From contig JALJEE010000986.1 of the NCBI GenBank assembly GCA_023231475.1, positions 1 through 64,000 on the forward strand: a DNA stretch of 64,000 nucleotides, read 5' to 3'. The stretch comes from Seison nebaliae (lineage: Eukaryota). The notes beneath the pieces are model-generated. The model searched no databases, had not been told where the DNA came from, and saw only the letters and a list, made by a program, of their open reading frames with translations. Made by a program: the position numbers and the translations under genes. Below are positions 4,008 to 63,745 of this stretch, piece by piece; the stretch's first letter is position 1, and every line of letters begins with the position of its first letter.

Positions 4008-4876
4008 TTATTTATTAAATTTCATTAATCTTTGTTTTCTTCGATTTTGGACGCTCGTTAATATCTGAAGAAAAAGTTTTGATATTTTTATAATAGTTTA
4101 CTCAACTATACTAACAAGTTTACATTGCGAGATAACTGTCGGTTGTTTGTTGATTAAGAGTGAACCATTTTGAAAAGAAACGTTTGGAGATTGACTAATT
4201 TTGGAATGAAAAGAAGTTTGGAATATATTTAAAAAACTAACCTGATTTGAAATAATGTTCTGTTCGTTTCTAAGAGTAGATGAGGCTTGACGTTGTCTTC
4301 GTATAAATCCATTTTACAAATTGGACACTTCAATTTGATTGCAGGTGTCAATCTGTGCAGACTAAGATTTTCTTTTGGTGGAGGTGATACATTGTCACTG
4401 CACAAATTACGAATAGAGAAACAATTCGAGTCAGTTGTTTTCATTCGATTCTCATTTTTTACTTGGTTGTTCGATGTGAATCGCTGTAAAATTTCTAGAA
4501 ATTGGTTAGTCGATTTGGAATGAGCCACATTTATGTTAGTTGGAATGTGGTCAACATTTTGAGACATTGACATGACGTTTGGTGGTATTGGCGGTGTAGG
4601 GAGAATTGTTGATTTATTGGAATTAGATAGGAATGGCGAGGTCTTTGAAAGTTTATTAAATAATAATCGTAGAGACTCAGAAGGTTGATGATTGGTGGAT
4701 TCAAAAGATGATTCGGAGAATTTGCATCGTTTCTCTATTGTCGGAGAACCATCAACATCGATGCAATCATCAGATGGTTCAGAGAAATAAGTAGAATCGT
4801 AACATTCTTCGTCTTTATGATCTGACGGTTCGTAACATCGTTTTCTAGGGATATTTCTCATCATGTTCTCTGTCAT
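4008..4876 (-). CDS. RNF220-like protein (zinc/middle-domain region only; no RING seen); 3 coding exons
   Basis: ORF 4229-4903 continues over two GTTAGT...AG introns to TAA at 4008. KCPICKMDL...KPHLLLE...ILTSVQNRRKQRL resembles the RNF220 middle domain (CPIC...HME.E...RVRANRQTRL). The start codon is uncertain. Confidence 0.5.
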
Positions 4877-7800
4877 GTTCTCAACACTAATTTCAACGAT
4901 CAATTATTGATGAATGAATCAAATGGGAATAATATCTAATGAGAAAAGTAATGATGGTTTTATATGGGAAGAAAGGAAGGTAATAATCGAAATTCGTGGA
5001 ACTGATTGGAAGAGAAAACAATCGAAACAATTTGAGAGGGAATTATTGTTCGATCACATAGACATGTTTGAGAATGATAAAAGAAACTTCCAATTATTTT
5101 CCGGTAAAGTGTCAAAGAAATTGGAGTGAACTATTCTTTGAAATGAAGGAAAACGATGTCTGACATATTACGATTAATTGGAATAAATAAACCGATTGGA
5201 ATCTATTAAAAGAAACGTCCAATCAATAAGAATATTCGATGAAATGTAAAAGTAGAAATGAATTACCCAAAACACCGCCCCTGATGAGAGGAGAGAGAAA
5301 TAAAACAGTTTGATCAATTAAGAAAAGACAATTCTTATCGACAAAGAAGAAACGATAGACAATTTTATCGAAAACGACACAAAAAGTCGACAATAAAAGA
5401 GATCAATTTGTTAAAGACAAAGTTGACGATTGAAATCAAAAGGAAAAAGAGAGATGAATATAATATCGTCTATTGATTGGTGATTGATGATTATTTTTAA
5501 TGATAGTTTAATAACAAACGATTGTGACAAACACGTCGATTGAAATTGATAAAAGTTATAAATGTGCATCAATAATATTTAAGGGGAACATTGACAATCA
5601 TCAAAATTATTAGTCAACGTCATTTACTTTTCTTTTGCCGAATCAAATTCAAACATTTATTGCCGATAAAACATCATCATTATCATCATCAATTGGATGA
5701 TGAAGGAAATGAATGTTTGTAGGAAATGATATCGTTCCACCCAGAAAATCTAGAGATATTTGTGCACAAGACATTATCGAATTGAATAGAAAATATTTTC
5801 ATTGTTGACGTCTTTTAAATACATTTCAATTCACTGAAGAATAGACGTGCGAGAATTAGTTGTTTAACGAATAAATGCGAAATTGATGTCTCACCTTATA
5901 TTCTCATTCGAATGTTAATTTTAACGAATTCCATTTTGACCTCTCCTCATTCTTCAATCCTCCTTCTTTTCATTACATCTCATCACAACTACTGAGCATG
6001 GAATATTGGAAGACGTGTGGCGAGAAAATAGGAATTGTTTTTCGAAAAAATAAACAAAAAGATATGTGAGGAAGAGCAATTGATAAAATTTATGTTGATC
6101 AACTATCTACTGAGTAAACATGAAATTTGAACAATTCTATCTCAATTCCATGTAAGTGTCAATTGGAAAAATTATATAATTTATCGGAGATTGATGAGAA
6201 CACATGAGGAAAATTCGATTAGCAAACGAACGTTGAATTTCATAAAAAAGTTAAGAAGAGGATTCTTCCTCTTTTACGAAACGGATATTCAGCCACCATT
6301 CAACTCTTAACGAAGAATTGAAAATAAGTGCAAATTATTCAAAGACTCAACGATCTTAAGCAAATGATATTCCTTCGACGTTCAACGAAAACGATTTATT
6401 TATCAGTTGAACTCTTTCCAATTCGACCAATTGATAATCAATTAGCAATTAACATTAACAATAGCAACAACATTAACAACCTCATAGTCATTATCAAAGA
6501 TCAGTTAACTTATTGTATTGTGTCGACTTGAGAAATGTGTTGAGAGTAGATCTAAGAATTCTTATTCATAAACATCTCAAAAGAGATTAGTAGATCCTTA
6601 TGCCTTACCCTCCACCATTAAATACCTCATTCACATCATACATAACCCATTTGCGGACGTTAATATATTTAGTAATGGAAATTCGAATTGTCGGTATATC
6701 TGGAATGCATCTGCTATTCGGTTTGCATTTTCAAACGATTATCAATTTCAGAAGAACATTCTCCTTCTTCTTTCCAATTGTTTATTAGATAAATCTTAAT
6801 CGGTTGTCATTGAAAGATCAGATATATATTAATTATTTATAATAAATATTTCACAAATTATTTGTTGAAAATTCAACTTGGTTTCCACTTTACTTACCAA
6901 TCAATATTTTTTAGTTAATTTTGACCGAACTTATAACAAAAAAAAATTTACATTGAATAACACCTCTTAACGAATATAAATAAGATTCTTCATTTAAATT
7001 ATGTAACCCATCTGATTTTAGTCCATTTGAAAGAAAGTTGCTTTTAATTGAAAAAACTATTTGAATAAAAACAACTATGTTATTTTAAGATCATTCTCCC
7101 ACTTTTTATTAAATAACCAATCAATATATTGTTTTCCTTCATAATAACATTATTTTTCCTCCTTGTCTTTATATGAATTCTTCGTATTCGTTAAATAATC
7201 ATAAACTAAAATTGTAACTTGTATATATATTACAGGAAAACTCTTCCAAACAATGAATGTCAAAAAGTTTATTAGATTTATAATCGAACATTTCAAAACT
7301 GATTAGTTACTTGATTAATTCATCAGAAGATTGACCAATTATCCATTTTTTCACTAGGTAAAAAGATTTGTTAGTAAATATTTCAAAAGTCATATAATTT
7401 GAGTCACTTAAAAATATAATGTCCGTTTCGGAATGATTGAAATTGTTTGAAATTAATTAATGGTGATATTTTTTTCGAAAAACTCCGAAATTTAGTGAAT
7501 TCTTCTTCGAAAATCTTAAATTAGTCGAATTTCTCTGTTGAATGAGAATGAATAATCTAAAAAGGAAATGAATTCTGTACTGATATTTAAATGAGTTCCT
7601 CTCACAAATATATAAGTTATGTCAGACATTCTTTATCTATGGGACGGTTTGGCTTACAAAGTTATTTTTTGTATTATCATTTTGTTAGTCATTTAGTAGG
7701 ACTTCATTTTCCTCATGATTAATAGTTCAGTTTTTGGAGTGGAGAGACATTGCTTAAATTTATTCGGTAATTAAATATTTACAAATAAACTTCTAGGTAT

Positions 7801-8596: not shown

Positions 8597-10799
<2,203 letters not shown>

Positions 10800-11336
10800 A
10801 GTGAAATAATCATATGTAAATGATATTACCTTTTCAAATTTTTCTCATTTTTATCATTCCTCTTCATTCCTCTTCATTCGTTCCGATTTCTATTGGTGGT
10901 AATTTATCTCAGAATCAAAATAATTTTCAATCGATCCATAAATTTGATTTTGGAGAATTGTTGTTCACCATTTCTTTTCCCAGTAAAATTTATCAATTGT
11001 TTTCCTTTATTTTTTTAAACGAATAATCATCATCATCATCATTATTATATTAACAGTTTATTTAGTTTTTTCAACACTTTCCCCACTCCCAAATGTTCCT
11101 CGATATTTTGAAATTATTGTTTTTTTTTCAACTAAATTTGGATAATATTTGGAACTTTTATTAGATACAAAAATATATGTGAAATAATTAGATGGAATTA
11201 GAGATTGCCCTTCAATTCATCCGAACCAATTTTATTTCTTATCAACAATTCATTTGAATTTGTTTGTTGTGAGGAATGTGTATTTATTTACAAAACCATT
11301 TGCATTGAAATGTAATAAATTTCTTAATGTCATTCT

Positions 11337-13908
11337 CTATCTCGTTGTTTGATTGCCAGTTAGTTTTGTTCGTCGATTATTATTCGATTCAACCGATGTT
11401 CGTTTCTTTAATAACTGAAATATGAAATTGAAAAAAACAAATGAAATTGAATATTATTTAACGTCTTCGATATAACTACGGAGAACGAGATGTCTTTCAT
11501 TTGGTGGATTAGTGGAATCATGAGAATCGATAGATAACGATTGTTTTGGTTGTTGAACTTCATTCTCTTTACCCAATTCGCTCTTGTCGATGAGAGTAGC
11601 ATCTCTCATTTTCAATTCCACATTCTCCAACGACGATATGAAATTGCCACAAATCTCATCAAACGCTTTTCCGTTCACTAAAAATGAATGAATAAGAGAA
11701 ATGATTTGATGATGGGAAAAGAAATTCCTAACAAATATCATTGAGATGTGGCTTATCTAACAATTGATTATCATTGTGATCAAGAATTGGTTGGTTCGAT
11801 TGAGAGAAATGAGTCAGTGGAAATTTGGAAGGTGGTCGATTGATTATGACTTTCGAATCAATCGATTCCATTCCATTCGATAATTCATCAACATTCATAT
11901 TATTCAACTGATTTTGCACATTCGATAACAGTTGTTGTTTATTCAAATTTTGTTGTTGTTGTTGTTGTTGTTGCTGTGGTTGTTGTTGTTGTTGTTGTTG
12001 TTGAAGTGATAAATATGGAATCATATTAATGTCATGAAGATTATCGTGAGTGAATTGATTGATTGTTGATTTCATTTGATTCTCTAATAAATGTTTAAAT
12101 TTCTTTAACAATTCTTTCTTCTCCAATGACACTCGATTATCTACCTCTGTTTCAACATTTTCAGATCGTTTTTGAATTGTATCTAACATCTCCTTCAATT
12201 TCCCGTCATATGATTGTTGAAGTCGTTCCATTTGTTGAACACTTTCCTCTCTCATTCGTTTTAATTGTTCACTTTTTGCTCGTTGCATTTCATTCATCTG
12301 ATTTGTCAATCGTTTCTGATATTTCATATTTTCATTCTCTATTTGTTTTCTTTGTTCCTCTTGAAATTTTGTCGCTTGATCTGCATTGATCATGAGCGCT
12401 TCTCTTAACTTATTCTGAAGTGTCTGGATCTCATGATGAAGTGAGGACTCTTCGTCTTTTAGTCGTTTCAATATTATCTGCTCTTTCTCCAACTTCATTT
12501 CCGTCAATTCCAATTCCTTCTCGAATTGACATCGTTCTTTCTTCTCATTCATCTCTACATTCTTCAATTTCGATTGTGTCTCAATTAACAATTTATCTTT
12601 CTCTTGAAACTTCTTTTTTTCCTCATTCAGTTTCATCTCCGTTTCCTTCAATTGATCGGTCAGATTTCTCAATTTCTCATTTCCCAATCTTAGTTTCTTC
12701 TTCTCGTCTGTCAAAAGTTTCTCAGAAAATTTCCTCTCTTTCTCTCCTTCCATCTTCACCATTTTCATTTCTTCATTCAATTCTTTATTGGACGTTTGTT
12801 TTTCTTTCAATTTATTTTCCGTCGATTGGAATTGTACCAGTAATTGTTTATTCTCCAAATGCATCTGCTCCACTTGCTCTCTCAATGACAAATTTTCCGA
12901 TTCGTGTTGTGCCGATTGTTCCATAATTATTTTCATTTCCTTTTGACATGAATCGATCAAATTCTTCATAATTTTATCGACATTCTTCAACAATTCATCT
13001 TTCTGCAACGAAAATGTTTTCGTTACACATAAATTCGATTCCAATTGTCGTACTTGATTCGTCAAATATTCATTCTTTCTACCTAAATGAATTCGTCGAA
13101 CTTTCTCAAATGATAATTCTTCTTTCATCAATCGATATTGTTCTCCCAATATCTCATTGCTCATTGTCGTTGTTATTATCGCTCCATTATTCGATGTTGT
13201 TGTTGTTGTTGATGATGATAATGAAGAAATCGTTGCCATATTGTTGTTATTATTATTGTTGTTGTTGTTGTTATAAATGACATTATGACTACGTTCGATA
13301 GGGAAATAGAGAGTTGTATCAATTTGAGATTCATTAGCAATTTCTTTCAATTCTTCTTCGTCTTCTTTATCAATTTCAATTTTACTGAAAATACTTGAAA
13401 ATTTTTGATATTTTTCTAAAGAGTTTTCTCCATTTTTATAAATATCATCAAACACTTTTGCCGTTTCCATTGACGATGGAATTGTCGCTTTCTTATTGAC
13501 CAACAAATTCTTCGTCGCCCTTGGAGAGATCAATTCATCAATTCTTTTCTCAATCACATTCTGAGAATCGATCACCAAATTCTCCTTCTTCTCCTCGTTC
13601 AATTCCTGATATTTCTCAAATCTTCTACTCATCCCTTTACCATTCTCGATACAATCACTCGTCAATGGAAATTTATGACTAATTTTCAAATTATTCAATA
13701 CCATTCCATCATCATACTCACCATTTTCTTTCTCTTCATTTATTCTCTCTAAATTTCCTTCTCCAACTTTCTTTCCGAAGAATGAATCATTTCCATTCGT
13801 CACTGTCGTCAAATCCATCACCGTATTATCATACGTATCAACACTATCGCGTGTCGTCTGATAATTCGTCTTTTCATCTAATTCACTTAACAGATTCCTC
13901 GTTTCCAT
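11337..13908 (-). CDS. CNTROB: Centrobin-like centriolar coiled-coil protein; 3 exons
   Basis: A 726-aa coiled-coil ORF plus two GTT-AG introns. EKVRRIHLGRKNEYLTNQVRQLESNLCV...QKDELLKNVDK matches my recollection of the centrobin ER.RR.H.E...KKD.MIEQLDK block. A C-terminal LRSYIEDLL motif is also present. Confidence 0.6.
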
Positions 13909-14083
13909 GGTGAGAAATCAGAAACTTTTAATAAATTAATCAAAATTTTATTTTTTGATTAAAGCTTAAAATTTTAAAATAGTGCAAAAAATATTTTGAT
14001 CTTATATAATTTTTTAAAAAAATTTATATTTCTCTTTCGGTTCATCAAACTGTCACCTACGAACTGAACTCAATTCTTTCTAT

Positions 14084-17000
14084 TTAATTTATTACAATGG
14101 AACTTCGAGGAATGCCGTTACATGCTGGAAAGAAACAGTACAATTACAGAATGAAAAATTAACGAGAACTTGCACAACATTCTTCCCATGGACTGAGATC
14201 GATGTCTTCTAAATTTTCACAGTTTTCATATTCATCGATTGATGTCGTTCGAAATACATCTGGTGGAACTTTCATCATCGTATCGCTAGTTATGCAAATG
14301 ATTTTCTTCAACGAAACTGAATCGATTGTTCGTGTTTGTGATTTGGTGAAGATATTCTCATTTTTATAATAGAATCTGTTAAAATGAATGTCGACATATA
14401 ATTGTGGAAATTGAAATGAATTCAAAACCGATCGCCATCACGTAAAATTCCGAATTGTTTTCGAATGATACAGGAGAAAGTTTCGCCAATTATTCCATTT
14501 GACATGTCATTATTCTCCAACATTCCACCAACCCACAAATCAATATTCTTCACATTTCCATATAAAGATTTCAGTTTTGAAATGATTTCATCATTTTTAA
14601 TAATTTGTTGTAGATCATCGAATGATTCGATAATTGACAATCCGCATTCTTTCCTAATTTTCACATACGTCTCAATAGCATGATCGCGACCTCTCTAACT
14701 GAACGAAAAAAAAAATAAAATAAAAAATTTCATTTCCATCACTTAACTTGAATGTTGAGTGATGCTAAATCTTGTGCTACATTTCTCGTATATTGGAAGA
14801 GATGTTCCGTTAATTCCTGACTCAATACTTTCCCGTACAACTTCTTCTTCATTGGAACATGTAATAAGCCACGTATTAATGGTTCGGGTCCTCCTTCAAA
14901 ATAGAATTTGTCTGGCGCAAAGAAAGCGTCATGTAATTGAATATTTCCGAATTCATATTCATCATAACTCTCATTTAAACGATATACCATTGGATTAATA
15001 TGAGCATGACCGAATCTAAAACATGAAAATCAGAGTTGTTTATTTTGAATTTTAAATTTACTACCGGAATGCAGCTGTCGCAAATTCGTTAAGAATTGTT
15101 GATTGAACTTCCGGATTATATCCGTCAAATTCATTTAAAGCAAATTCTTCTTTTAATAAATTTGGTAACCAGTCACGATAAGTGATTTTCTGCATAACTG
15201 CCCCTATAAATTTCCTAGTTTCCTGATAAACGATTTCGTCGTTCCAATGAGGATTTAATTTTGAAAATTTCTCCACTAAATAATTATGGAATCGAATGAA
15301 TATCGAATGAATTGCGAGAAGATTTAATTGTTCATTCGCCCGTAAATCGCCACAAAGGAAACATCCCATACTATTATCAAAACGAGTTTGACAATCCATT
15401 GGAGACGATTGTTTGTATGGAGGAAGTCCTGATGGGAATTTAGATACTTTTAACACTTTTAATTTAGCTGTTGCTTTCCCATCAACAACTTCTCGTAAAT
15501 CGAAATTATCTCGATCATGTGAAGAATAAACATTTGATGCATCGATATAAGACGTAACATGATTCATCTGTTCCCGATACATCGGTTGTCGCCAAATGAT
15601 GGAATTAACACCGGAAGTACAAATGGAAGACGATCTTAAAAATTCAATACAATCTCCTTCATTCAATCGACTGTCATTGTTAGCAGCGTGAATTGGAAAA
15701 CAAGGTGGTTCATTCGAACATGAATCACGACATTTTATTCCATCACTAAATCGATGTCTGGTCAAAGTGATGACGGTGAATGTGATGTCATGATCAAGAA
15801 ATTGTCCCCATTGAATGAACATTTGTGAATAGAGAGAATGAAAATTATTCATTTCATCCTTGGTAAAAAATAATTTTTGAGATATTTCACGTACATTCGG
15901 TAACGTAAAATTATCGAAATATTTCCGGTCTTTATTCCAACCAACAGGCGAACTAATTCCATTTTCATATCTAGGTGGTAACATTCGTCCCAATGCAGTG
16001 AACGCCGCACCAATCAATCCCTGTTCCACATTATTACAACTACCGTCAATTGTTCGATATTTTTGATGGAAACAAGAATATTCGGAACAATTCACTTCTC
16101 GTATATGTCGCTCACAACCAGATAATCTGGCCAGATATCGAACTTCATCAATTGACAAAACATTTTCACGATAATCGAATTGAGAAGTTAAATTGTTATC
16201 AAAATTTAATCGATGAATATTTCTGTGAATAAATTCCAAAGCATTTTCAAAAATTTCTTGACGTTGCGCCAATTCTTTCTTATCAACGAAACCATAATCT
16301 CGAATGGTGTCCATGATTCTTGTTCGCTTTTTCTCCGTCGACGACGAATGCATATTTTTCAAAATTTTCTTTTCACTTTCATTCGTTATGTCTCTCATCA
16401 ATTTATCTGATAACATTTCTCGTCGATGTTTCATTCGATCTTTCACTGTCACGTGGAAAATCTCTTTATTTTTTCCATTTTCACAAACGTATTCTTTCTT
16501 ATCATTTCGACTGACATTTAAAAGAATAATTGTGTTCTGATTTAAAATGAAAAAATTAGAATGATCTCCTTCAGATGTCCAACTACATTCGTCGATATAT
16601 CGACTATTCAGTTGGACGTTGTCACCTTCCTTCACTTCCAACGAATGATTCCAAATTTGTTCGTTGGAACATCCGTTCGGATCGAATTGATTTAAAGGAA
16701 AAATAATCCCACACTTAATTTCACTATTACTGTTCTGGTTAATTTTCGGAAGAAATTTTACCAATTCTTCACAACTCTCACAAGAAATTGAACATTTTGT
16801 TTGTTTCAATGATCTGTTTTGGATGAGTGGATGAGAATTGGAGAAACTTCAACTAAAAACTAACAACGATATCAATGATGGGAATTTTTGGAAGAATTGA
16901 TTAAAATGAAAATTGTCACAATTTTCGATTTGTTCCAAAACTCTAAAATGATTTTTCAATTAACGAAAGAGAATGTGGGAAAAGAATGAACAAATATCTG

Positions 17001-17417
17001 ATTTGTGTTATAATTCGTAAGGATGTTAATTGTAATTGACTTAAATCGCCATTTTTCAAATATCTGCAGGAAGAAGCAAAATGAATGAATTAATGAACAA
17101 ATGAATGAAAAGAAATAAAGAAATGTAACATCGTATTCAAATTGGGAAAATATCGAACTATTCCGTTTAAGTATTTTTCTAATTCAACATCATTTTCAAC
17201 ATATCTGGATGATTATTAAAATTCATTGTTATGAAAGAAGAAAAAGAAACAAATTGAAAATTTTCCTTTTCTCAATAAAGGGACGAGTAAGAACGGAACG
17301 ATAATCAACTTCATTCTTACAAACTAAATCGAAAGTTCCCGATTGGTGTAAACATTGAGCATGGATAGTTGATTGAATCAAAAGTATGATGGTGATAAAA
17401 TGACGAATGAATATCAT
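14084..17417 (-). CDS. PXDN: Peroxidasin-like heme peroxidase (signal peptide, degenerate LRRs, one Ig, peroxidase domain); 9 exons
   Basis: Motifs YRTIDGSCNN, QWGQFLDHD, REQMNHVTSYIDAS, GDLRANEQ, AAFRFGH, NIQRGRDH, IDLWVGG and LRDGDRF. Short phase-2 LRR-type exons lie at about 16865-17205. Confidence 0.9.
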
Positions 17418-18033
17418 AATCTGATGGAAAGATCTTGTTATTAGAGAATATAAAAAAGAACATCAGTTGTTGCTGGTTCCTCTAACAACCACAACTCATA
17501 AAATAAATCAATTAATTTTCCTTTATTAAAGTGTTAATGAAGAATGTTCACCTCTTGACACGCGTGAAGGAAAAAGTATCTGAACGTGAGAACGATTAAA
17601 ATAATCACATTCATTATCGTTATGATGATAATAAGAGGAAAGTAATTTTTATTCAAGGATATCAATTTAATAAACAACTCGAACACATTTACCATATCAT
17701 CGAGGACGATAGTAAGAAAACATTCAGATATAACCAATGAATTCGAACATTGAATCATGATTACGTCAACATCAATTATCATCATATGATGGAAATTAAA
17801 ATGAAATTATCATAACTCTATTTCTCCAAGTCATTTACAATTTTTCTTCTTAAATCAATTCTCATTCAAATTTTCCGTTTTATTTCCATAATTTACCCGA
17901 CAACATAAGGGAATATTTTAAAATAGTTTTAAATTTATTCGTATAATAAGATGAAACAGACAATGAAGAAGAAGATAAAGAAGGAGAAGATATTAGAAGG
18001 AGAAATTGATTAATTGCCATCGATTTTTCCTTT

Positions 18034-21639: not shown

Positions 21640-21722
21640 GATTTGAAAAATATTTCAGTCGAAATCAGGAACATATTTTTCTGTTCTTTCATTGATCATC
21701 GACATCATTTTGATGAGAATAA
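21640..21722 (-). promoter_or_regulatory. Candidate SECIS element (type II) in the SELENOK 3' UTR
   Basis: Minus strand reads AUGA(21708)-U-GUCGAUGAUC-AA...GAACA/UGUUC minihelix...GAUUUCGAC-U-GA(21655). This gives a non-Watson-Crick quartet, about 10 bp of helix II and unpaired As 11 nt after AUGA, about 90 nt downstream of the UGA. Confidence 0.7.
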
Positions 21723-21793
21723 ATTTGTTTAAATTATGACGATGTGAAATTCGATGATAATTTTGACTTGTCTACCAAAAATTATCATCAAAA

Positions 21794-24593: not shown

Positions 24594-24852
24594 ATTTAAT
24601 CTTCTTTCTTCTCAATGTCGTTTTGTTTTCATAATTCATTTCAACTTCTATTTGTTAAAACACTCGAAAGTTTTTTTCGAAAAAAAAATAGAATTTATAT
24701 TTTTTAAAATTTAATACAATTCCTTCTAATTTTCTTCTTTCCCATATAATATATATATATGTGATAATGACGACTTATTAATCATAAAATTGTTTAAGAG
24801 TGAACGAATGTGAGAGAAAATAAGAAAATTATAAAAAAAAAATATTTTTCCG

Positions 24853-46524: not shown

Positions 46525-46999
46525 AATGAGAATGAGAAAAGGAAAATTGAGTTTGGAAAAATATTCCGAAGAAAATTTATAACAATTGATCACATGATCA
46601 ATTAAGAGTAGAACAATATAAGAAATGAAAATTTGAAAAGAATATTAATTATAATTAATTAATAATGGAATTCTTTCATTCCGTTAAAGAAACTTACAAA
46701 TTTTATTTCATTGATGAATCGAAAGAGTTGATGAAAAGAAATATGAAAGTGAAATGAATTGAAAATATCTACCAGGATTATTTCAGAAAATGAGAAAATT
46801 TTATGAAATTTATGAGAAATATTATTTTATATTTGAGTGTGCTCTTCAAAGAAAAGAAAGGTAAATGAAACTTTCCACGAATTTGGTTGAAGCAAGAGGA
46901 AAGATACTAATAAATTTAAAATGAAGTTAAAGGAAGAAAATCTCCTTCATCTTTTCTCGTTGGAAATTGTTGACGTTGGAGGGAAGCAGAGATAGTTGA

Positions 47000-49357: not shown

Positions 49358-50054
49358 GATATTTTTCTAATTCTCTTCAAAAAAATTTCTTTACCAAAAA
49401 TATTTCTTATTGGCAATTCTGGAGAAGCCGCTGATTAAAATTTTAGGGATCATTCGAATTCATTCTATCCTTTCTATTATCATTTCATTATCATTCTCCA
49501 CTCACATACTACACTTACTATTTACCTACATTATTTATTCATTAATTTCTTTCTTCCAAACGAACTTTAAATTCCTACTGTATAATTCCTTCGAAATTCC
49601 TGGATCAATTTGAAATAATTTTAATTTTTAAATTTTATTCTACTGAAATCCACTTCACAATAATATTGAGTAACATTATAAATTAAATTGTTTTGTGAGA
49701 AACAGCCAAATGAAGAGAAATCAGTGAGAAGTAGTAAAAGATTCGATTAATTCATTAGAGATTATAAAAATAATGAGACGACTAGAGTATAATAAGGAAA
49801 TGTCGAAGGAATTATGTAAAAAATAATTCGATTCGAAGAAGAAATTGTTTTGCATCAAATAAGAGTTGAAGTGAAGCTCGATTAGAATGGCGAATGGACT
49901 AGAATAGTTTGTATGAAATGAAAATAGAATCACATAAACTTACATCACTTAAATAGATTTGGTTGACGAAGACGAAAGAAGATTGATTAGTTCTAAATAA
50001 AATTCGATTTGTTTGTTAAATTTGAATTAAATCTCTTTACAATAATAACCACCC

Positions 50055-52452
50055 TTAAACTTTATTGAGAAGTGCTTCACTCATTTCGTTGAGATCGTTC
50101 GATGAATGAGATTCAATCATTTGTTTTTCGTTCTCACCCAGAACACGGAGATCATTAAGAAAATCTTTGGAGGATATGATGTGATCACCACCGACAATCA
50201 ATTCCCATTTCCCACTTTTAATAATTTCATTTTGCATCACTTCGTATACACATCTCATCTCGCTGTAAGTCACTCCTCCCAACACATATACGATGAAACG
50301 GGGACATTGTTTCTTCGTCTGTTCACCACTTCGATGCCATAAACCATAACTTCGAGCACTCGTATTCACATTAGTGACGGTGGGACCGCGATTATTGAGA
50401 AAAGGAAATTTCATTTGATCCAAATGTTCTTCGATGGCATCTTCTAACACATCTTTCAAATATGGTGTCCATCTTGACGTGTTGTATGTTCGTTCAGTTC
50501 TTTCTTTTCTTGGTGTTGGAATATTCTTTCTTAATCGCTTTAATAATGAAATTAATGAAAATAAAAGAAAAAGAAAGAGGAACTCCAGTTCGATTCATGT
50601 CAGTACAGACATTGAGACCGAATAATTGCATATTCAAAATACGTTTCTTCGCATCCATCGACAATTTTGAATGATTGATTAATTTCTCTAAATTCTCTTC
50701 AGTAATTCCATTTTTGTTGAGAATGTAAAGGAGAATCAATCGTAATTTATCGCTTTCTGGATATTCGTCTGCCATCAAAATATGAACCAACGGTTTCATA
50801 TGATCCTTAATTTTCTCGCCTTCTGCATTACAACCCATCGCCAAATTCTACAAACATTCAATTTCATCGAATTTATTATAAGAATCAAAACTTGTTCATG
50901 CTCACAAACGTATTTGACACGTTCCTGATAAATGTTGAGACAATCCTCCGCCAAATGAACAGCTAATGAGAACTCGTTCAATTCCTTTCGATATTGCGGC
51001 ATTTGTTTCAACATTTTATTCAATTCTTTCAATGATGCCTGATCATTTTTACCTTTCCCAAATTGTTTATCACTCATGAACGATTTTAATTTACTCGTAA
51101 CTGCATTAGATGCATCGGCGATATGTTTATGACGTAAATTCAACCACACTTCATCATTCTCATCTAGAATGACTTCTTTATCTATTTCACCTCCGTTTGC
51201 CGTCTCTCCTTTAAATCGGTAAACGTCGTTGTCGATATTTAACAAATCATACGCCATGGCTTGAATAGTCAATTCATGTAATAAAGGTGAAACTGCATCA
51301 AATCCTCGATCGAGAATCAATAATTGCGATTTCATTTTTTCGGCACCATCTCCCATGTTGGGATCGTCCGCTTTATATTTGTCAATTTTCGCTTGAACTA
51401 AATTAGCGAATTGGAAACCACTTTCAAATTCTCTGAAATTTTCATTATTTAAATATTAAATAGAATGAAAATCAAATGTTTAACGCTCGATATCGAATAG
51501 CTGGATATTCACCTAGACAAGAACAAACGGTCGCTATTTGTTCTGCAATTCCATCCAGAACTTTGAGTCGATTCATAAAATTTGGATTATATGCAGCTTG
51601 TGACGCTTCAGGTAAATCCAAAGAAAAGATCTTTTAGTTAACAAAGTCAATAATATTAGTTTAAGAAGAATAAAAATTGGATGAGAAAAGAAACGTTCGA
51701 TTCGTATGGAAGGAAAGCGATATTGATCTCTTTCATCGTTTTCATAACTCTCATGGCTCGTGTTCGTGATATTTTAGAAAACATTTCATCTGGAATAGCT
51801 AAAAAATTGCCGAGTTATTTTGAAGAGAATTAAATGGATGTTGAAAATCATTCTCCAAACTGACTCAAAATAATAACATTCAGTGAAGAATACATGGAAA
51901 CATTTATACGGGACATTGTGCAAATCACAACAATCTTGCAGAAGAAGATCTATCGACTGAAGTCAAATAGAATTAGACAAGAAGTTTCTCGATAATATTC
52001 ATCTAACTCTTTCCGTCGGTGTAATTAGATATATCGCTTCCAATAACGGTAATGGTTCCCGTTTCTTTTCAATATCTTCCACGACTTTATTTTTTTTAAT
52101 TTTTCAATGAGACAATTATAGGAGATAATTTAATGAATATTAAAGAAGACTTGTAATTCCAGTAGACATGATTTGAGTCATCTTTAAGCATGCGGACGTT
52201 ATACGTGTAGCCAGTCGATCCATCACTAATACTCTCCATGGTGATGATTTTGGTAGAGTACTCGAATTGAACACTTCTTGCAAAATTTCTAAACAATTCC
52301 ATCAACATTAGGAGATAGTCGAATTGAATAAAATGTTGTGTAAATTTCGTTAATGACGAAAATCGTAGAAAATTTTTTATATTTAGCGAGTCATTTTATA
52401 ACGCAATTTTTTTTAAAACCTAACTTGCCCCAACTAGTTCTCTTAACACCAT
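50055..52452 (-). CDS. STXBP1: Sec1/Munc18 family syntaxin-binding protein (Rop/UNC-18); 9 exons
   Basis: [12 protein letters not shown]...WRVLVMD...[47 protein letters not shown]...[12 protein letters not shown] and [14 protein letters not shown]. Eight introns. Confidence 0.93.
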
Positions 52453-52911
52453 AGTTAGTGTTGAGATTGAAATTTATCTGTTAAATGAAGCTGCAACAAA
52501 TGATGATGGTGATAAATGCAGTTTATTTATTATGGTAATATAATTATAATTCTGTATGTGCAAGAAAGTTGTATAAGCATGCTAATAAGATGTTATAGAG
52601 ATATTACGAAAATCAATAAAATTCGTATTCGACGACAACAGATATAAAAATTGTATAACAAGGAATTTAATTTATTAAATTGCGAATAATTTTAAGGGAG
52701 TTTGACTTTAAGCTTAATAAATCAAAGTTTGAAATTATTCATAATAAGGCTTAAAATTTTAATTTTAAAAAATTAAAAAATTTTAACCTTACTGAAATAT
52801 ATTACACCTCGTCATTCCATAGTCATAGTTACATTAAAGAAATTGAAAATATTTTAATTTCATTTTTTTTCTCATAATTTCTTTTATATTTCGGTTGGAT
52901 TAGAAGGAATA

Positions 52912-54230: not shown

Positions 54231-57155
54231 TAACGAGAATGATCATAAATATTTTCATTTAGAACATGATCCGAATGATAAAGAATTTCTTATAGAAGAT
54301 TTGTATAAGAGAAGTGAATCAGGCAAATCAGGAATTGTCGAACATGAACGAACTGCAATTCGATTGAATAATAATGAAACGATGAGAAATTTAATGAGAA
54401 TTGACAACATGTTTAATGATCAACAGAAAGAGATTATCGATCAGAATATCGATAGTCATCGATATAAATCTGATTTACTTGCTCAAAAGATTATTGATAA
54501 ATATTTCGATAATGATCATCAGTTGGAACAAGAGACGATAATGAAATTATTAAATGAAAAGAAAAAGATCGAAGAGACATTAATTAATGGTCAATCAGAG
54601 AATAATTCAAATAATAATCCAACATCTGATTTTACTATAACAACTTCATCATCATTAAAATCGGATGATGGTGAAGGAAAGAAGGAAATATCTTCATCAT
54701 CAACCAAATCGATAATTCCATCGAATACCTCGAAAATTACTGACGAATCTCAAAGAACAAACAAAAAAAGTTCTCGTCATAATCATCATATAGACGATAT
54801 CGATGACGACGATGTTTATTTGGAATTATTGAAGCAATTTCCAAAGAAAGTGAAAATATCGAACGAATTTCATTTGCCGATATCGACGAAAGACAAACCA
54901 GTAACACCAGATCGAAGTGTCGAATTAGATAAGAAATTGCCAATATCACAATTTCAAATTGATGATATCCATTTACCATCAGTATCATCAACATCGCCAA
55001 AATCGTCATTATCTAATGATTCATCGTTGTCTCCAAGTAGAAATGTAACGAATAAGATAATGAGAGAAATTGATGATCTTTCACCCAAAGATGTCACTCG
55101 TTCATCATCAGATGAATATCCATCAAATAAGTTGCCATTAGTAATTCCACGAATTGAGAATGAACCGATAATTTCATCTCAAGTCTCTCCACGTCAAATG
55201 AGACATGTCAGTTCGAACACAACTCCGAGAAAGATGATTCAATCGAAAATTCAAACGACACAAACGGAAATGATAAAAGAGAAACAAATTCGTTATTGTT
55301 CTTGTGGTTATGATGTTGATACTTCTATTCTTACTACCACCAACTCAACTGTAAGTACAATGGAAAATAAAAATTATGAGAATAGTTCCACTTCCAAAAT
55401 TCATTCGGATGATGACGATGAATCGGGCACTTATTTTAGTGATGGAGAATTGTTTGTTTTTAGTAAATTGAATCGTCATTCATCGACATTCATACGAGAA
55501 CCGATCGAATTGGGAGAAGATCGAACTTGGTTCAAATTGAGAAAGAATCAGGAAGAAACTATTAAACCGATTCGTCGTTTAGTCGACATTACTCAATGTT
55601 CCTCACATTATCAGATGAGTGAAGGAGAAGTTCGATTAAGTTCGTTGAATCTTTTCGAACATAATCTTTCGGAAGGCGAGTTAAAACGCGAAGATAAATC
55701 GAAGAAATTTCAGAGAAGAAAATTAAAAAAAAGTTTTTTTTTAATTTTTAAAAAAATTTTTTTTTTTTATTTTCATCAATTTTAGATCGCCGATCACGTC
55801 TACAAGTGAAATATTGTCCCATTTGTCATTTGTTGATAAGAGGAGGAGTGAATGATTCGAGAATCGATGAGGAATATGAGTCGACGATATCATCGAACAG
55901 AAATAATGAGAAAGAAGAAATGATGAAGAAAATATCTTCTAAATCGAAAACATGTGAAGTTGATGATGATACGAATATATATCAAGATGAAGAATTCGAT
56001 GATGATGATGATGATGATGATGAGAATCATATGATAAAGGATGTTTTAGAAGAAGAGAAGGAAGAAGAGAATATATTGCCATTATTGGGCATGAATAATG
56101 CTCAAGAATTAGAGAAGAAGAATAGTCTTTATTCACCACAAAAGAAACATATAATGGAAAATGAATTTCGTATTTTAGGAAAGTCGAATGATTCGAACGA
56201 ATCAGAAGTCGATGGGAAAAGTGAAGAAATTGAGAAAGATTCATTTGTTCGATTGATTAAAGAGCAGAAGTCATCAATTCCTATTGATAATTCAATTCTT
56301 GGAATCGTTAATGATGACGACGATGACGATGACGAGAAATTGGATGATCGAATGGCAACTGAATTAGAGAATATTTATAATGGAAATGCTGATGATCAAT
56401 TGAAAGAGGGATCATCAAACGATTCTTCAAGTTTAACATTCAAAAATGTCTTTCCACAACAAGACGAAATAGAATCGTCAACTTCAGGAACTTTATCTTT
56501 AACTTCTCCATCGAATGAGAAGAAAATAAATTCGTCCAATATTCATGCGACTTCCCAAGGTGACAATGAAGAAAGAGATTCATATAATAAATTTTTTAAT
56601 CAATTAAACTCTAATGGAAATCAACGGCAACAACCTAATAACAATAATAACAACAAGAATAATCATCATCAACGACGACTCACGAGAATAATAGCGACGG
56701 GACCGGACGCTGTAAAGAAATATCAGGAGAAATTCAACAATTCAATTCCGGTGAATGGAAATCATGATCGTTATTCGGAGAAAGATTCGGATAATTTGAA
56801 TAATACCATCGATTCGTTGAGTTATGGAATTACGTTTTTGAAGGAATATGATTCTCCAGAAATCAATTCCACTCAGACATTGACAATAACAGAAATGGAC
56901 GAAGTGGATCGTTGTGAGAAATTGCCATTACTTATTTATTCTTCATCATTATCATCATCTCAATCATCGTCACCTGAACGTCGTCAAGATGATCATCGAA
57001 GTATTTCCGTTTCGCCAGTAAAACATCGAAAAAGGAAAAATAAAAAGAAGATTGAATTGGAGGAATTGGATGAACAACGTCGTTCTGAAGAGAATGAAAC
57101 GAAAAAAACAATTGGACGACATCTCTCAATTCGATTAGAAGAGAAATTAGAATAA
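52912..57155 (+). CDS. Large coiled-coil/low-complexity protein, possibly TALPID3 (KIAA0586)-like; 2 exons
   Basis: ORFs 52912-55785 and 55806-57155 join in phase 1 across a GTTTTT...TTTAG intron (about 55733-55785). The repeated S(D/E)GE motifs (FSDGELF, MSEGEV, LSEGEL) recall the TALPID3 C-terminus, but the identity is weak. Confidence 0.5.
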
Positions 57156-57952
57156 TTTTATTGATTAATCTCATTCTTTGATAAAAGTGTTTGCTTTTCT
57201 TTTCGAATAAATTGCTTATAAATGAAATTGGGGAAATTTGTCTTCCCTCGCTACTATAGTAATGTTGATATTTGTCATGAAATCTGGAATGATTAAATGA
57301 TGATTAATTTGTTGAGAGGAAAATAATTGGAGAAATTAAATTGAAACGAAATTTAGTTTTGTTTCGACGTTTGTTAAGATGAAGATCGACAAAAGAAATC
57401 GATAAGAAAAGAAATGATTTGTTTCAAATGATAAAATGTTTGAAAATTAAATTTCTGATTATAAATAATAAAGTTTAATAATAATTGGGAAGTAGATGGA
57501 ATATTGAAATAAATAAAATGGAAACAAAACAAAAAAAAAGAGAGAGAGATAATTGTCTTTTCAACAATGAATATATTAGAAGGACTAACGGTGAATGAGC
57601 AATGTGTATCGAGAGATACTCAATATGATACTCATGTCTCAACTAATAAAACTTTTCCGCTTTCCATCAATTTCTAATAGATGACTCCTGAAAAGAAAAA
57701 CGGGAAAAATAAATAGGAATTCTCATAATTTACTTTATCGATAAAATGGAAATTTATCGAATTTCTCATTCTCAATGGAAAATAAATACGGATAAACTGA
57801 AAGAATTATGTGAGTAGATCGAAAATGTGAGTGCATGCACGTACAAATGGAAGAGAGAGAGAGAGAAAGTTCAATTCTTTAACTTTCTATTGTTTAGAAT
57901 AATGAATAATAATTCTCAGACAAAAAAATTTTTTTTGATTTAAAATTCAAAT

Positions 57953-59963
57953 TTAACTCTTCTTCCGATTGTTTCGATTACCTCCACCGTTATTCTTCCG
58001 ATTTTGATTATGATGAGTATTTGTCGCATCCAAATCTTCCATTGAACCTTTCGTTCGCTTATTATTCTTCTTCTTCTCATTATTTTGATTAGTCTTATTA
58101 TTCTTCTGTTGTTGTTGTTTGTTGTTGTTGTTATTATTATTATTATGTTTCGTATTCTGATTATTCTTATTCTGTTGAGTTTGTTTCGTTTGTTTGTTTT
58201 GAGTTGGAGGTTGTTGAGGAGGATTTTGTTGTTGTTGTTGTTGTTGTTTCTGATTATTAATCGGTTGAATTGTTGGTTGTGGTGGTGTGGATGTGACATG
58301 AGATGTTACTACTGATTCCGGTGTAGCGACTGGACAAATAACTTTCTCCATTGTCTCCTCTAAATAATCTTCATATCTATTAAAGGTAATTAATTAATTA
58401 ATTAATTTAAATAAAATTTTAATGAAACTTTAGCATCTTTTTTGCTTCACCTTGAAATATCGCCATTCCTAACGGTATGATGAGACATAGAGGAACAATA
58501 TACAAGAGAGCCGGTTGAGCGTGTTTGAAAATGGTCATAACAATGACAGTGATACATAACGCTAAAATATAGGCAGCTAATGTGGTATAGAAATAGAGTT
58601 TTGATCCTTCATTGAATGCATCGTCATTATCCAAATCTTTATCGTCGTTAATGATAGTTTTATATAATAAATCTCTTTCCAAACAAGCCGTATTCTTATT
58701 CCCATTATTATTATCAGTATAATTATTATTATTAAAATTTTTCTTCCGATGTCCATTCTCTTTCTTCCGAATTTTACTCACTAATTTACTAAAAAAGAAA
58801 ATTTAAAAAATTTAAAAAAATTTTATTCGTACAAACCTGACGTCATATCGGAGAAGAAGTGCGATAAATATTCCCGGAACGACGATATCACCCAAACCGA
58901 GCATAGCCAGATTTTCAGCGTTTAGACCTTTCTCCAAAATATCTTGAGGGAAAATCAATTTAATCGGCGCCTTAAATTGAACGGCCACTGAAACCATCAC
59001 ATTCGTTCCAAAAACCTACAAATAATTCCCATGAAATCCAAATAAGACGGAAAATTTTTAACCCAGAATATATCGTAAAGAAATAATCCACTTAAGAGAA
59101 TGATTCCAGGAAGTAATCGATCGATATGTAAAATTTCGATGCTGTTAATTGCCAGAGCCAAACCGAAAATGTTATTAGCAATCCAATGCTGGGAAAATAG
59201 AAAAGATGAAGAAAATAATAAAGAAAAAAAACCTTTTCATAATAATACCAGATACCAACAGCTGTGGAGAAGATACAGCAGAAAATGTTTCCAGTTGAGA
59301 ATGAGATTTTACTCCAATCTTTAGAAAAAAGAAATGATGAATTTGAAAAAAAAAATGGAAAACTTTTGGGCCATCCAGTCGGTTCCGTATTTTCTGTAAA
59401 AATGATGGAATAATATTTCATTGAGCAAGAATATTTCGTGAGACTATGGAAGACACTTCCAAGACTTCGTGCCAATGCACTAATTCCCAGAAAAACGAAA
59501 TAAACATCGACCACTTTGTCTAGCGGATCTTTCGGACATAACTAACAAAAATTAATTGAATTAATTCATAAATTTATCTTGAGATTATTTGACTAACAAT
59601 GAAAATGATATAAGTGGAGAAGAGTGCAATCGATGCAATCAACGGGAACATAGCGGCGTCTGCACTTGTCATCTTTTCGGGTCGAGTTCCAGTCACTTTA
59701 AGTTGACGAATTTGTCGTTGTACTGAACGAACGGAACGTTTACTTCCAATATAAACAGCGAAAACGGCCATAAACAATAGGGAGATATAGGCCAATAACA
59801 TTCCTTCCGTCGTCGACGGTTTTCTCGTCGTCGTATTGTTGATAGCAGTTCGATTGATGACTTTGGCTTTCAAAATCTCCGTTAGATTATTCCTCACAAA
59901 TTGGATGGCTAATCGAGTGTAATTTTGGAGATTCTTCATATCCATCAGATCTTTCAATGTCAT
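57953..59963 (-). CDS. HM13: Signal peptide peptidase (HM13/SPP) with Q/N-rich tail; about 7 exons
   Basis: DAAMFPLIAS, KHWIANNIFGL, YDIFWVFGT.VMVSVA..FKAPIKL, MLGLGDIVVPG and HAQPALLYIVP (YD / GxGD / PAL motifs). Confidence 0.93.
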
Positions 59964-60567
59964 GATTGGAACGATCGTCAATATGATTGAAGTGAAAACT
60001 GAGTATTGAAAAAAACTAAGGAGAAAGTTCTGACTGTGAATGAATGAATGAATGAATGGGAGGAAGGAATGAGATTGGATAGGAAGGAAGAAGAAAAATA
60101 GAAAATGGGAAAATTAATGTGTGGACGAATGAAAAAAATTGGAACAATTGATATATTCATTTGACATAGGAAAAAAAAGTATACATATGTGTGGGGGAAT
60201 TATGCAAGAGAATAGATAAAAACGGATAAAACTAGTATTCCATATGTGGCTATAAGCTGAAAAGTTAAATTTGAAGAAAAAGTTCGAAAAAATTTTATAG
60301 AATAATTATCTCGAAATGTCATTGTTATGGCAACGACATGAATCTCATAGTGTCGCTTAGCAATTAATACACAAATAATTGCAAGAAAGCGTATCAACCT
60401 CAATTCGATTCGATTCATGAACACCACAACAGCAAACAGAGAAATTTTATAAAACTTATTATTTTTATTTTGGAAACTCCTTTTTCTTCTTCCCGACCTT
60501 ATCCTTCTCCTTCTTAACCAAAGACGAAAAATACATTACATCTCTTACATTCCATACATGTGATAGG

Positions 60568-63500
60568 ATGAGTAATAATGGTATTGACGATCAAGTGTTG
60601 GAACGATATGAAATGAACAAACGTCTTGGTCGAGGAGTTATCCGTCTTTCATCTCCTTCTTCCTTTCTCCAATCCAAATATATTGTAGGCTTATGGAATC
60701 GTATGGAAAGCAATTGATAAACGGACACAAGGCACTGTGGCTTTAAAGAAGATCTTTGATGCATTCCGCAACAAGACTGATGCACAACGAACTTACCGTG
60801 AAGTCTGGTTCTTATGTCGATTCAACTCACATCCAAATGTCATCAGATTACTTGATATAATGAAAGCACAAAATAATAAGGATCTCTATCTCGTCTTCGA
60901 TTTTATGGGTTTCTCCTTCTTACACTTCTTACAAAAACTCATTCTCTTCTAAAACAGAAACTGATCTTCATCGACTAATCAAAAGAAAGAACGTACTACA
61001 TGACATGCATAAAAGATATATTATGTATCAATTATTCAAATCAACTTATTATCTTCATTCTGGTGACGTTATTCATCGAGATCAAAAAGTTAATTTGTGT
61101 CAAACAAAAAAAATCTTTAATTTAAATTCTTCCCTCCTTTAGCCATGTAACATTCTGTTGAATAAACAATGCGTCCTCAAATTGGCCGATTTCGGATTGG
61201 CTCGCTCAGTTAATGAGACAGCGGAAACAAACCCCGTCCCATATACCGAATATATCGCTACTCGATGGTATCGGGCACCGGAAATTTTATTAGCATCAAA
61301 AACGTTAAGAAAATTTGTTTCAAGAATTTCTTACTAAATTATCATCCAGTTATACGAAAGGTATCGATATGTGGAGTATTGGTTGTATTTTAGGCGAATT
61401 GTATTTGAATGAACCAATCTTCCAAGGAACGAACACATTGAACCAGTTGGAAAAAATTCTCGTTTATATGCCAAAACCGAGTAGTGAAGGTTCCTCTATA
61501 TTCAATAAATCAATATCCTCTATCTATATAAATCAATTTTTCAATTCTTTTTCGAAATAGATATCGAAAGTTTACAAACGAATTATATGGAATTTTTACG
61601 GAATCAACCATCAAAGTTAAAAATTCTTCTAAATTTTCTTGTCAGTTCCTAAGACCTTTAATTGAGAAATGATAAAAACATTTAATGTTGAAATATTTGA
61701 AATGAAAAAAAACGTAATTTATTTTTATTGAAATGTTTCTAGGGAATTTTATCGAAAACGTTTAGAAGATTTAGTTCCGAATATGCCAAAAGATGCGATG
61801 GATCTTTTTATAAATTTATTAAAAATAAATCCAAAGAAGCGTTTAACTGCATTGGAATGTATGCATCATATTTATGTTGCCAGGTTGATTTTCACTAGAT
61901 TAAATGAATGATGTGATAGTCGACAAAAGATTCTATAACAAAAATGATGAGAATGTTCTTGATGAACCAGTGACGCCGGATTTGAATGATAATACTCAAT
62001 TGTCAATCGATGAATATCGTCAACGGATTTATTTAGTTAATTTCTAATTCAGTTTATTTTTGAATAATTATGTTGGAATTATTTCAGATGTGCAACCAAT
62101 TGAGAGAAAGCAGTCGAACAGAAAAGTTACATCGACGGTCGAAAAGTCGAAATCAGTTAGATGAGAATAGTAAGCGGTATTCGAATTCACAAGTTGCGAA
62201 ATCGGCGGTCAGTTATCATCGTAATTATGGAAAAGAGGGAAAAAATTATGAGAAAGATGATCATCGAAACGAATCGAATGATCGAGATAATTCAAAGAAG
62301 AAGAGAAATAGTCGTCTTCATATCTCAGAATCGACGAATTCTTTATTACATTATGGTGGGGGTAATAATAATGAGGGACGACATCGATTGAAATCGTCGA
62401 CAACTCACCAGTATGGCAATCAACAATATCTGAATGACAGTGATGAGACATTGAAATCTGATCAGGATAATTTATTGTCATCAGCATTCCTCCAACCGGT
62501 ATCTAATCAAAGATCTCATACTCAACAAAACAACAACAGCAACAATAATAGTTCAAATTATTATTATCCATCGTCGTCTTCTCATCATCAGTTGCAACAA
62601 CCATCACAACATCGAGTACAATATCAATATAATCCGAATCGAATAGTCTCCAACTATATTAGTCAAAATGAAACGGAAACTAGTAAATTAAGAAGATCTC
62701 AATCATTTTCCACTCGAAATACTCGTCAATGTTTTCTTTTTCTTCTTTCTCTTTTCATATAATTCTCTCTCTTTCTAAAGATAATGATCAACATCGTCAT
62801 TATGCCGGTCATCAACATTATGCACATCCAACTAATCCGTCGAAGTTATCCGCCTATAATAGAATTAAAGACAAATCTTCAGCGCCTTTACAACGGACAA
62901 GTGAACAACGATATCTTCGATCATATCATCGTTCAAGTGGGAATTATGGACATTCGGCTAATCCACAACCAGGTTACGGAGTACAAACAGTTTCGTTTGG
63001 TCAAAAGAATTCGAGAAGAAATTCAACAAGTGATAATCATTATGGAAAAGATGATAATCATCGTTCACTGTCTCGCACATTGCCACATGATTATTATAAT
63101 GATAATCATGTGAATAATAATGAGAATCAATATCGATATACTACTAATCATTACGAGAAGACATCGAATAATTCAGTTAATCAATTACCGAATGGAGTGA
63201 ATTATTATCATCATCCAATTAAACGTGATCATTCAAGTAAACGATTGTACAAGCAAAATTCAACACCACCATCAACAACAACAACAGCAACAACAAATAG
63301 TATTAACTATCCATCTTTAAATTCATATTATTATCAACAATCACAGAATGAACCTAATTACGATTCTGCCACTCAATATTATCGAACAACACCATCCAGA
63401 CTATTGAACACCAACAACAGCAACAATAACAATACGAATAAGAATCGTACTTCATTATCATCGTTAAATAAGACAACAGATAATCGAAATAATTATTCAT

Positions 63501-63745
63501 CAAAAACTCATAGTAACAGCAACAATAACAACAACAACAATAATAATGTAGTAACATTTAGTAAAACGTTTGACGTGATCAATCCAAAGAATGGTAATGA
63601 TAATTCTTATAATCTTGTGAATTCATCAAGTAGCAATCAGTGGCATCCAAACGGGAAGACACGACACCACTTACTGAGTGGATCACCCAGAAATCGTCGA
63701 TCTTCCAAGAATACTCCCAAGAGCAGTAATCGTCAAAATTCATAA
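60568..63745 (+). CDS. MAPK15: Atypical MAP kinase ERK7/8 with long N/S-rich tail; 10 exons
   Basis: [61 protein letters not shown] and [12 protein letters not shown]. Nine introns, all starting GTT. Confidence 0.95.

Follow-up and report, generated by a model that had tools for sequence, protein, structure and literature searches.

Introduction

The purine at the third intron position of the 5' splice site (donor +3) is taken to hold generally, from yeasts to mammals (PMC9869432), and two classes of donor are distinguished, AG//GU and //GURAG (PMC11732430, PMC10581693; here and below, what is taken from these two papers and from 10.1101/2022.06.08.495308, PMC13326754, PMC11162779 and PMC8351084 refers to the accessible parts of their texts). 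The closest described departure is that of Entamoeba, in which donors read GUUUGU(U), the U1 small nuclear RNA (snRNA) carries a co-evolved ACAAAC end and the ACAGA box of U6 is unchanged (10.1101/2022.06.08.495308). Mastigamoeba balamuthi also combines an atypical donor, GUGCGC, with a compensating U1, ACGUAC, and is intron-richer, but it is a protist and its change lies at +4, not +3. U1–donor coevolution is documented in that study only for these two amoebozoans, transformed signals there accompany intron loss and strict motifs, and where donors are atypical but U1 is unaltered, the departure lies at +4 or further on (10.1101/2022.06.08.495308). The larvaceans Fritillaria and Oikopleura are animals with transformed donors; they escape GT/AG itself, with an unchanged U1 sequence, a duplicated U2AF and altered N6-methyladenosine (PMC13326754). 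Donor preference also moves with the machinery when METTL16 or SNRNP27K is lost, the signature of which is a switch to +4U (PMC11732430). Here we describe a 64,000-nucleotide stretch of the genome of Seison nebaliae (assembly GCA_023231475.1, contig JALJEE010000986.1, positions 1 to 64,000 of the forward strand), hereafter the window, in which nearly all spliceosomal introns start with GTT.

Seison nebaliae is a tiny marine rotifer relative (Seisonidea, grouped with Monogononta, Bdelloidea and Acanthocephala in Syndermata). Its genome measures 46 Mb, with compact genes and two lineages, and the text that describes it makes no statement on splice sites, 'intron' occurring twice, 'splic' once and 'snRNA' not at all (PMC8351084). 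Seison resembles Entamoeba in having +3U for a purine at nearly all introns (41 of 45 donors defined by RNA) and in keeping GT–AG ends. In contrast with the intron-poor protist, whose strict signal of 6–7 bases (88–90% GUUUGU) is accompanied by a fixed branch point, Seison is an animal that packs at least 60 introns into 64 kb and has nearly free donor flanks (GTTTGT in 1 of 60) and no enriched branch-point motif; the compensating U1 shown in Entamoeba is one that we infer in Seison. Unlike the larvaceans, Seison has GT–AG ends at 46 of 46 RNA introns, the change being at +3. A preliminary description of the window knew of no such code. This stands for animals, as a full-text literature search found neither a description of Seison donors nor a +3U-dominant animal (subscription papers, unseen supplements and per-species survey tables, such as PMC10639083, which lists Seison, were outside its scope), but not for eukaryotes at large, +3U donors with a compensating U1 having been described for Entamoeba (10.1101/2022.06.08.495308). 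A lineage-wide transformed +3U donor is thus already known; new are the intron-rich animal, the single flipped position, the donor that belongs to neither known class and the loss of the exonic -1G.

Results

The RNA evidence comes from Additional file 2 of PMC8351084, in which alignments of assembled transcripts made with GMAP occupy at least 51 rows on the matching contig; all RNA results below are among the rows listed. Transcript blocks coincide with window coordinates to the base. Twelve transcript entries, which cover all in-window gaps of 30 nucleotides or more, were used, leaving aside rows of a single block, isoforms that repeat some of these gaps, rows extending past 64,000 and one gap of 3 nucleotides. 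Transcript assembly was genome-guided and covers minus-strand genes only, with no rows for MAPK15 and MAPKAPK2. Each of the 46 gaps has a single GT/GC..AG placement, which is always GT..AG, and together they define 45 distinct donors: 41 GTT, three GTA (15064, 18787, 21899) and one GTC (52150). The RNA junctions confirm the GTT starts that had been reconstructed from reading frames. One uncertain GTG donor, proposed at 20119, lies within a transcript block and is unspliced there.

Deposited gene models are possibly biased by their annotator, and a spliced aligner was therefore built on non-Seison homolog profiles only; it charges the same cost for every GT or GC donor and leaves +3 unscored. 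It placed 27 introns in MAPK15, Munc18, HM13 and ACTL6. Twenty of them lead the next-best model by a margin of 10 bits or more, and these, the same donors as in the deposited models, comprise 19 GTT and one GTC; the seven low-margin calls that were dropped comprise four GTT, one GTA and two GC, and the three that are not GTT are contradicted by RNA. When donors were limited to GTA or GTG, the score fell from 506 to 244 for MAPK15, from 791 to 525 for Munc18, from 406 to 279 for HM13 and from 409 to 228 for ACTL6, a price of 128–266 bits per gene. The deposited models, once mapped back, give 29 GTT and one GTC in 30 introns: 9 of 9 GTT in MAPK15, where the letters read as the preliminary description had them, 6 of 6 in ACTL6, where RNA agrees, 7 of 7 in HM13, where RNA gives 8 of 8 (six had been counted before), and 7 of 8 in Munc18, as had been claimed, the eighth being GTC in the models and in RNA alike. 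The proteins of these models agree on the species: a Munc18 exon matches its own deposited S. nebaliae protein, encoded on a contig of 75,424 bases together with four single-exon proteins of the window, and MAPK15, HM13 and ACTL6 point to S. nebaliae as well.

An ab initio gene finder in which positions +3 to +8 are unscored, not fully independent because the 30 deposited introns served to train its model of intron bodies, called GTT at 58 of 68 introns unfiltered and at 40 of 43 with a margin of 4 or more. It recovered 38 of the 45 RNA donors, and three of its low-margin calls are unsupported by RNA; its calls in a hAT-like region and in a read-through beyond the TGT gene do not enter the counts made after the run. 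When RNA donors, deposited donors and firm ab initio donors are merged, they amount to 55 GTT, three GTA, two GTC and no GTG (n = 60), close to the 58, four and two of 64 first proposed.

The abundance of T at +3 exceeds what the composition of these introns provides. After internal GT dinucleotides of introns (n = 80) the next letter is T in 44 cases (55%), C in 20, A in 12 and G in four, and window-wide T follows GT at 42% of sites. Against the internal-GT expectation, 55 GTT among 60 donors gives p = 6e-10, and the frequency of +3 T within the window is thus not that of the intronic background. C is depleted at +3 (2 of 60 donors vs 25% of internal GT, p = 7e-6), and when C is set aside T still occupies 55 of 58 donors vs 73% expected (p = 3e-5; Fisher p = 0.002). 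A and T had been thought equally favoured by AT-richness; this is not so, TpA being depleted in introns (observed/expected 0.55), but the depletion is insufficient to explain the GTT pattern. A purine at +3 is found in three of 60 Seison donors vs 64 of 70 in other animals.

Beyond GT, the signal sits at +3, which carries 0.79 bits relative to the intron background (n = 48). Because +4 is T in only 23 of 60 donors (38%, below the 46% background), the T excess concerns one position and is not general U-richness; nor is there a +4U switch of the METTL16/SNRNP27K-loss type. The +4A (24 of 60, p = 0.09) is not above background, +5A (13 of 60) is below its background of 31%, and +6 is free (+6G in six of 60, p = 0.2). 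A weak remnant of +5G persists (11 of 60 vs 6.5% background, p = 0.002), most of it following +4A (7 of 11 vs 17 of 49 other donors, p = 0.10). The earlier statement that +4 to +6 are nearly free therefore holds, with this remnant left. On the exon side, -1G is found in 14 of 60 donors and is at background (12 of 48 vs 19% in coding sequence, p = 0.18). With -1G no commoner than in the background, +5G reduced to a weak remnant and both missing from 38 of 60 donors, the Seison donor code is essentially GUU. In other animals 4 of 70 donors have neither G and so fall outside both known classes.

The introns are short (median 52 nucleotides, 45 of 60 between 43 and 58), with bodies composed of 46% T and 6.5% G. 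U is enriched at +8 (37 of 60) and +9 (40 of 60), and 3' ends are pyrimidine- and U-rich (n = 48: T at -5 in 37, a pyrimidine at -3 in 39; TAG 22, CAG 17, AAG 9). No branch-point motif is enriched, YTRAY being present in 25 of 48 introns while shuffled sequences give 24.1. The motifs of U12-type introns, an RTATCC donor and a CCTTAA branch site, were each found in 0 of 60. Introns made by introners or transposons were likewise rejected: no sequence is shared between Seison introns other than low-complexity 14-mers in two pairs, three-base direct repeats are found in 0 of 60, and the Munc18 positions are ancestral, 7 of 8 matching other animals in column and phase and the eighth lying within 3–5 columns. 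Since the Munc18 positions are shared with animals and the introns have no common sequence, Seison introns are ancestral introns rewritten in place.

The same methods were applied to other genomes. A rotifer Munc18 alignment retrieved 48 metagenome loci, of which 22 are intronless in the match, nine have long introns and were not run, and 17 were run, three of these being duplicates of a locus called L033. The control set consists of 13 non-redundant loci that group with arthropods; with two GC calls dropped, the aligner gave 70 GT introns, in which +3 is A in 52, G in 12, T in four and C in two, with -1G in 44 and +5G in 42. In a quick tree, the branches of which are long, L033 groups with Brachionus (SH-aLRT 95) and Seison is placed next to the two (97); the intron size and GC content of L033 suggest a bdelloid-like origin. 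Eleven of its 13 Munc18 donors are GTA and two are GTT. On L033 and its companion L034 (22.6 kb), the donor-blind finder made 31 firm calls, 26 GTA, five GTT and no GTG, with -1G in eight and +5G in ten (unfiltered, n = 51: 38 GTA, 10 GTT and one GTG). The background there has 41% T after GT, yet 84% of the firm donors are GTA. As GTT was returned for only four of 70 introns in other animals and five of 31 in the rotifer-clade locus, the methods are free of a GTT bias. Seison, with 41 of 45 GTT, differs from L033/L034 with p = 2e-11. This comparison is with one rotifer-clade locus and was made without a monogonont or acanthocephalan genomic locus with introns; the flip from A to T at +3 separates Seison from this one relative. 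In L033/L034, 14 of 31 donors have neither -1G nor +5G, vs 4 of 70 in other animals (p = 7e-6) and 38 of 60 in Seison (p = 0.12), which argues that weak flanks are older than the switch. The +3 of L033/L034 is A or T, not A or G, which is itself unusual; an intron-containing sterol methyltransferase gene is also present there.

Contigs of the second Seison lineage, at low depth and about 80–90% alike, stop aligning 4, 4, 9 and 10 nucleotides inside the introns at 50891, 52150, 50583 and 52424, just past GTT or GTC. These alignment ends suggest that GTT/GTC is kept in the second lineage at those four introns.

Discussion

The claim that donor recognition has changed in this lineage is well supported: the +3U preference is position-specific, far above background, absent from 13 animal loci and reversed in a rotifer-clade locus (26 GTA of 31). 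Seison thereby breaks the link of transformed donors with intron loss, having many introns, a minimal signal and a single flipped position, and it invites the question how a three-base donor gets found at all. Other animals (GTR), the rotifer-clade relative (GTA with some GTT) and Seison (GTT) form a natural series, and the two Seison lineages lend themselves to measuring selection; with public data, the long-standing problem of how a spliceosome and thousands of targets change together becomes directly testable. There is also a practical side, as the aligner of PMC9869432 penalises GTT donors by 8, so that standard tools will place introns wrongly in genomes of this kind.

In the standard model, donor +3 pairs with position 6 of U1. 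It then comes to lie opposite G44 of U6, an interaction that is weak in humans (PMC11732430). We tentatively propose, at a little less than an even chance, that the GUU donors are caused by a U1 5' end with A instead of U opposite +3; the partner would be an A and not a G because U alone is preferred and C is depleted. Entamoeba, the only other +3U lineage in the texts examined, points the same way, since its U1 did change while its U6 did not (10.1101/2022.06.08.495308). Slightly more tentative is the wider proposal that Seison may be the first animal with a rewritten U1 recognition end, its intron-rich genome having changed GUA to GUU within its ancestral introns, by way of a tolerated intermediate that other rotifers still show, and having reached a three-letter donor of neither known class. 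Syndermatan donors would first have lost strength until only a three-base core, GUA, was left, GUU being tolerated at the level of about 16% found in the relative; L033/L034, with similarly weak flanks and mostly +3A (26 GTA, five GTT), is in this intermediate state. A U1 copy reading ACUAAC would have paired with the tolerated GUU sites, and U-biased mutation together with selection would then have converted the remaining introns singly. Intron definition across some 50 nucleotides would supply the specificity past three bases, together with the U-rich, G-poor body, which a binder of the TIA-1/Nam8 type could perhaps read. After the departure of U1, +3U would face U6 G44, where a G–U wobble is possible with an unchanged U6.

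No snRNA was found in the window at either Rfam threshold, nor in eight fetched loci, and a U1-shaped pattern matched 58 times in viral contigs, none of the matches being U1-like on reading. Several observations weigh against a rewritten U1. Strong U1 complementarity predicts that +4A and -1G persist, and neither exceeds background. GTA donors are still functional, as RNA shows for three of 45, one of them with the textbook sequence ACG|GTAAGT. Most atypical-donor lineages (yeasts, Giardia, Trichomonas, Thecamonas, Mamiellales) have a standard U1 (10.1101/2022.06.08.495308), as does Fritillaria despite its atypical donors (PMC13326754). Finally, all donors come from a single stretch of 64 kb whose depth is about 0.6 of that seen on other contigs. 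Counts of base pairs against candidate U1 ends were circular and were not used.

A serious, though less probable, explanation is that the snRNAs are standard and that changed proteins (U1-C, LUC7, a U-tract binder of the TIA-1 type, Prp8, SNU23), with a G–U wobble to U6 G44, read +3U while U1 pairing is marginal. The near absence of information at the flanking U1-pairing positions and the U enrichment at +8 and +9 are in line with it, as are the weakness of the +3/G44 interaction in humans (PMC11732430), the change of donors under an unchanged U1 sequence in Fritillaria (PMC13326754) and the strong divergence of U1-C in Entamoeba (10.1101/2022.06.08.495308); a G44 partner should, however, take C at least as well as U, and C is depleted. 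It is improbable that +3 is simply free apart from an avoidance of C and is filled with T by mutation bias, TpA depletion and U-rich introns: the 46% T of intron bodies, the TpA ratio and the T after 44 of 80 internal GT all push in that direction, but even with C left aside T exceeds the 73% expected, +4 is only 38% T, and the rotifer-clade relative has a similar background and yet mostly uses GTA. A change of U6 G44 to A (ACAAAGA), pairing with +3U, appears very unlikely; an A partner would fit the preference for U alone, whereas the other donor positions read by U6 are weak in Seison. The ACAGA box is, moreover, close to invariant and catalytically important. It is kept in Entamoeba (10.1101/2022.06.08.495308), and Fritillaria keeps its U1 and U6 motifs despite non-GT ends (PMC13326754).

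Two further possibilities concern the extent and the register of the signal. That GTT is confined to one class of chromosome and GTA/GTG prevails elsewhere in the genome is as unlikely as the U6 change. Mamiellales do have two chromosome types with different signals (10.1101/2022.06.08.495308), and window contigs have a depth of 15–17 vs 26–31 for other contigs in the same runs (8–9 vs 13–15 in run X1); but a single spliceosome serves all chromosomes and the published aligner, judged by eye and without a count, scored most short introns on other contigs as deletions too, a weak hint that donors there are equally atypical. Least likely of all is pairing of a standard U1 in a register displaced by one base or across a bulge (GUU-RAG). 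Such registers have reportedly been described at human donors by Roca and Krainer in 2009; the human shifted-register donors also begin with GTT, are rare and need RAG one base downstream, which only two of 60 Seison donors have at +4 to +6, although GTT is dominant. They account for about 1.5% of human donors (PMC11162779). The rarity of +5A and +6G and the remnant G at +5, which keeps the normal register, leave a shifted or bulged register largely refuted.

Genes of the window and other observations

The genes and their donors are listed in Table 1.

Table 1. Introns of the window by gene, with donor positions and the evidence for them.
Gene	Coordinates	Strand	Donors	Evidence
MAPK15	60568..63745	+	9, all GTT: 60637, 60909, 61089, 61304, 61490, 61616, 61884, 62036, 62731	deposited P0126; first seven by foreign homologs
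HM13 (signal peptide peptidase)	57141..60035	-	8, all GTT: 59597, 59363, 59232, 59062, 58836, 58428, 57957, 57589	RNA; deposited P0397 for seven
Single intron of 52912-57155 orphan	55733..55785	+	GTT	ab initio, margin 8.3
Munc18/STXBP1	49708..52492	-	8: GTT 52424, 52007, 51877, 51694, 51484, 50891, 50583; GTC 52150	RNA, homologs, other animals, second lineage
Orphan gene	42862..46580	-	3: GTT 43982, 43570, 43166	RNA; no Pfam match
Yippee-like 5' exons	37134..38434	-	GTT 37786, 37592	RNA; weak PF03226
ACTL6-like actin-related gene	24722..26456	-	6, all GTT: 26378, 26110, 25956, 25705, 25120, 24979	RNA; deposited P0245; homologs for five
Selenoprotein K-like gene	21392..22243	-	GTT 22208, 22064; textbook ACG|GTAAGT 21899	RNA; weak PF10961
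Disabled-like gene	17934..20165	-	GTT 19752, 19642, 19441, 19257, 19100, 18950; GTA 18787	RNA; weak PF21792
Peroxidasin-like gene	14032..17430	-	GTT 17250, 17129, 14747, 14428, 14169; GTA 15064; GTT 16991, 16864 (prediction only)	RNA except as marked; PF03098 continuous across exons
Orphan gene	11143..13944	-	GTT 11732, 11462	RNA
MAPKAPK2-like kinase	9154..10799	+	GTC 9589; GTT 9788, 10136, 10263 (low margin), 10602	ab initio only; PF00069
Orphan	4008..4876	-	candidate GTT 4241, 4115	excluded from counts

The donors that are not GTT have features of their own. Both GTC donors (9589 and 52150) read GTCTTC, and 52150 is seemingly kept in the second lineage. The GTA donor at 18787 is on an exon of the Disabled-like gene that is skipped in one of two isoforms, and the intron at 21899 in the selenoprotein K-like gene is retained in one of two. 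GTA donors are thus found in alternative isoforms (exon skipping, intron retention) in two of three cases vs 5 of 41 GTT donors (p = 0.06); this is a lead only, and old-style GTA donors may be weaker or regulatory. The selenoprotein K-like gene was missed by the ab initio finder; it has four RNA exons and ends with GG-TGA-G-TAA, and a weak hairpin with AUGA...GA (z = -1.7) near 21650–21715, in its 3' untranslated region, may be a selenocysteine insertion sequence. The yippee-like exons (35950–38118, minus strand) show RNA-supported splicing toward a low-complexity frame of 529 residues that matches nothing in Pfam and would make the tail unusually long for a member of this family.

Single-exon genes stand amid intron-rich neighbours: a DRP1-like dynamin (47000–49330), TGT (41377–42744), a cathepsin (26667–28340) and a misato-like gene (22791–24593), which suggests gene-wise intron loss. 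Positions 284–2665 hold, in tandem, the remains of a BED zinc finger and a hAT-like transposase; the three GTT introns predicted in this region (1665, 1727, 2102) are either genuine or possibly an effect of bridging frameshifts. Full-depth contigs match the Munc18 pieces 50733–50767 and 51240–51292 with coding-looking flanks, pointing to a Munc18 paralog elsewhere in the genome. In five runs the window contigs (44001–64000) show this depth of about 0.6 relative to other contigs, and no second haplotype is present at the same depth. The published depth peaks of the species are 79x and 132x, the lower one being called heterozygous (PMC8351084); the window contigs look hemizygous rather than heterozygous and may belong to a sex chromosome.

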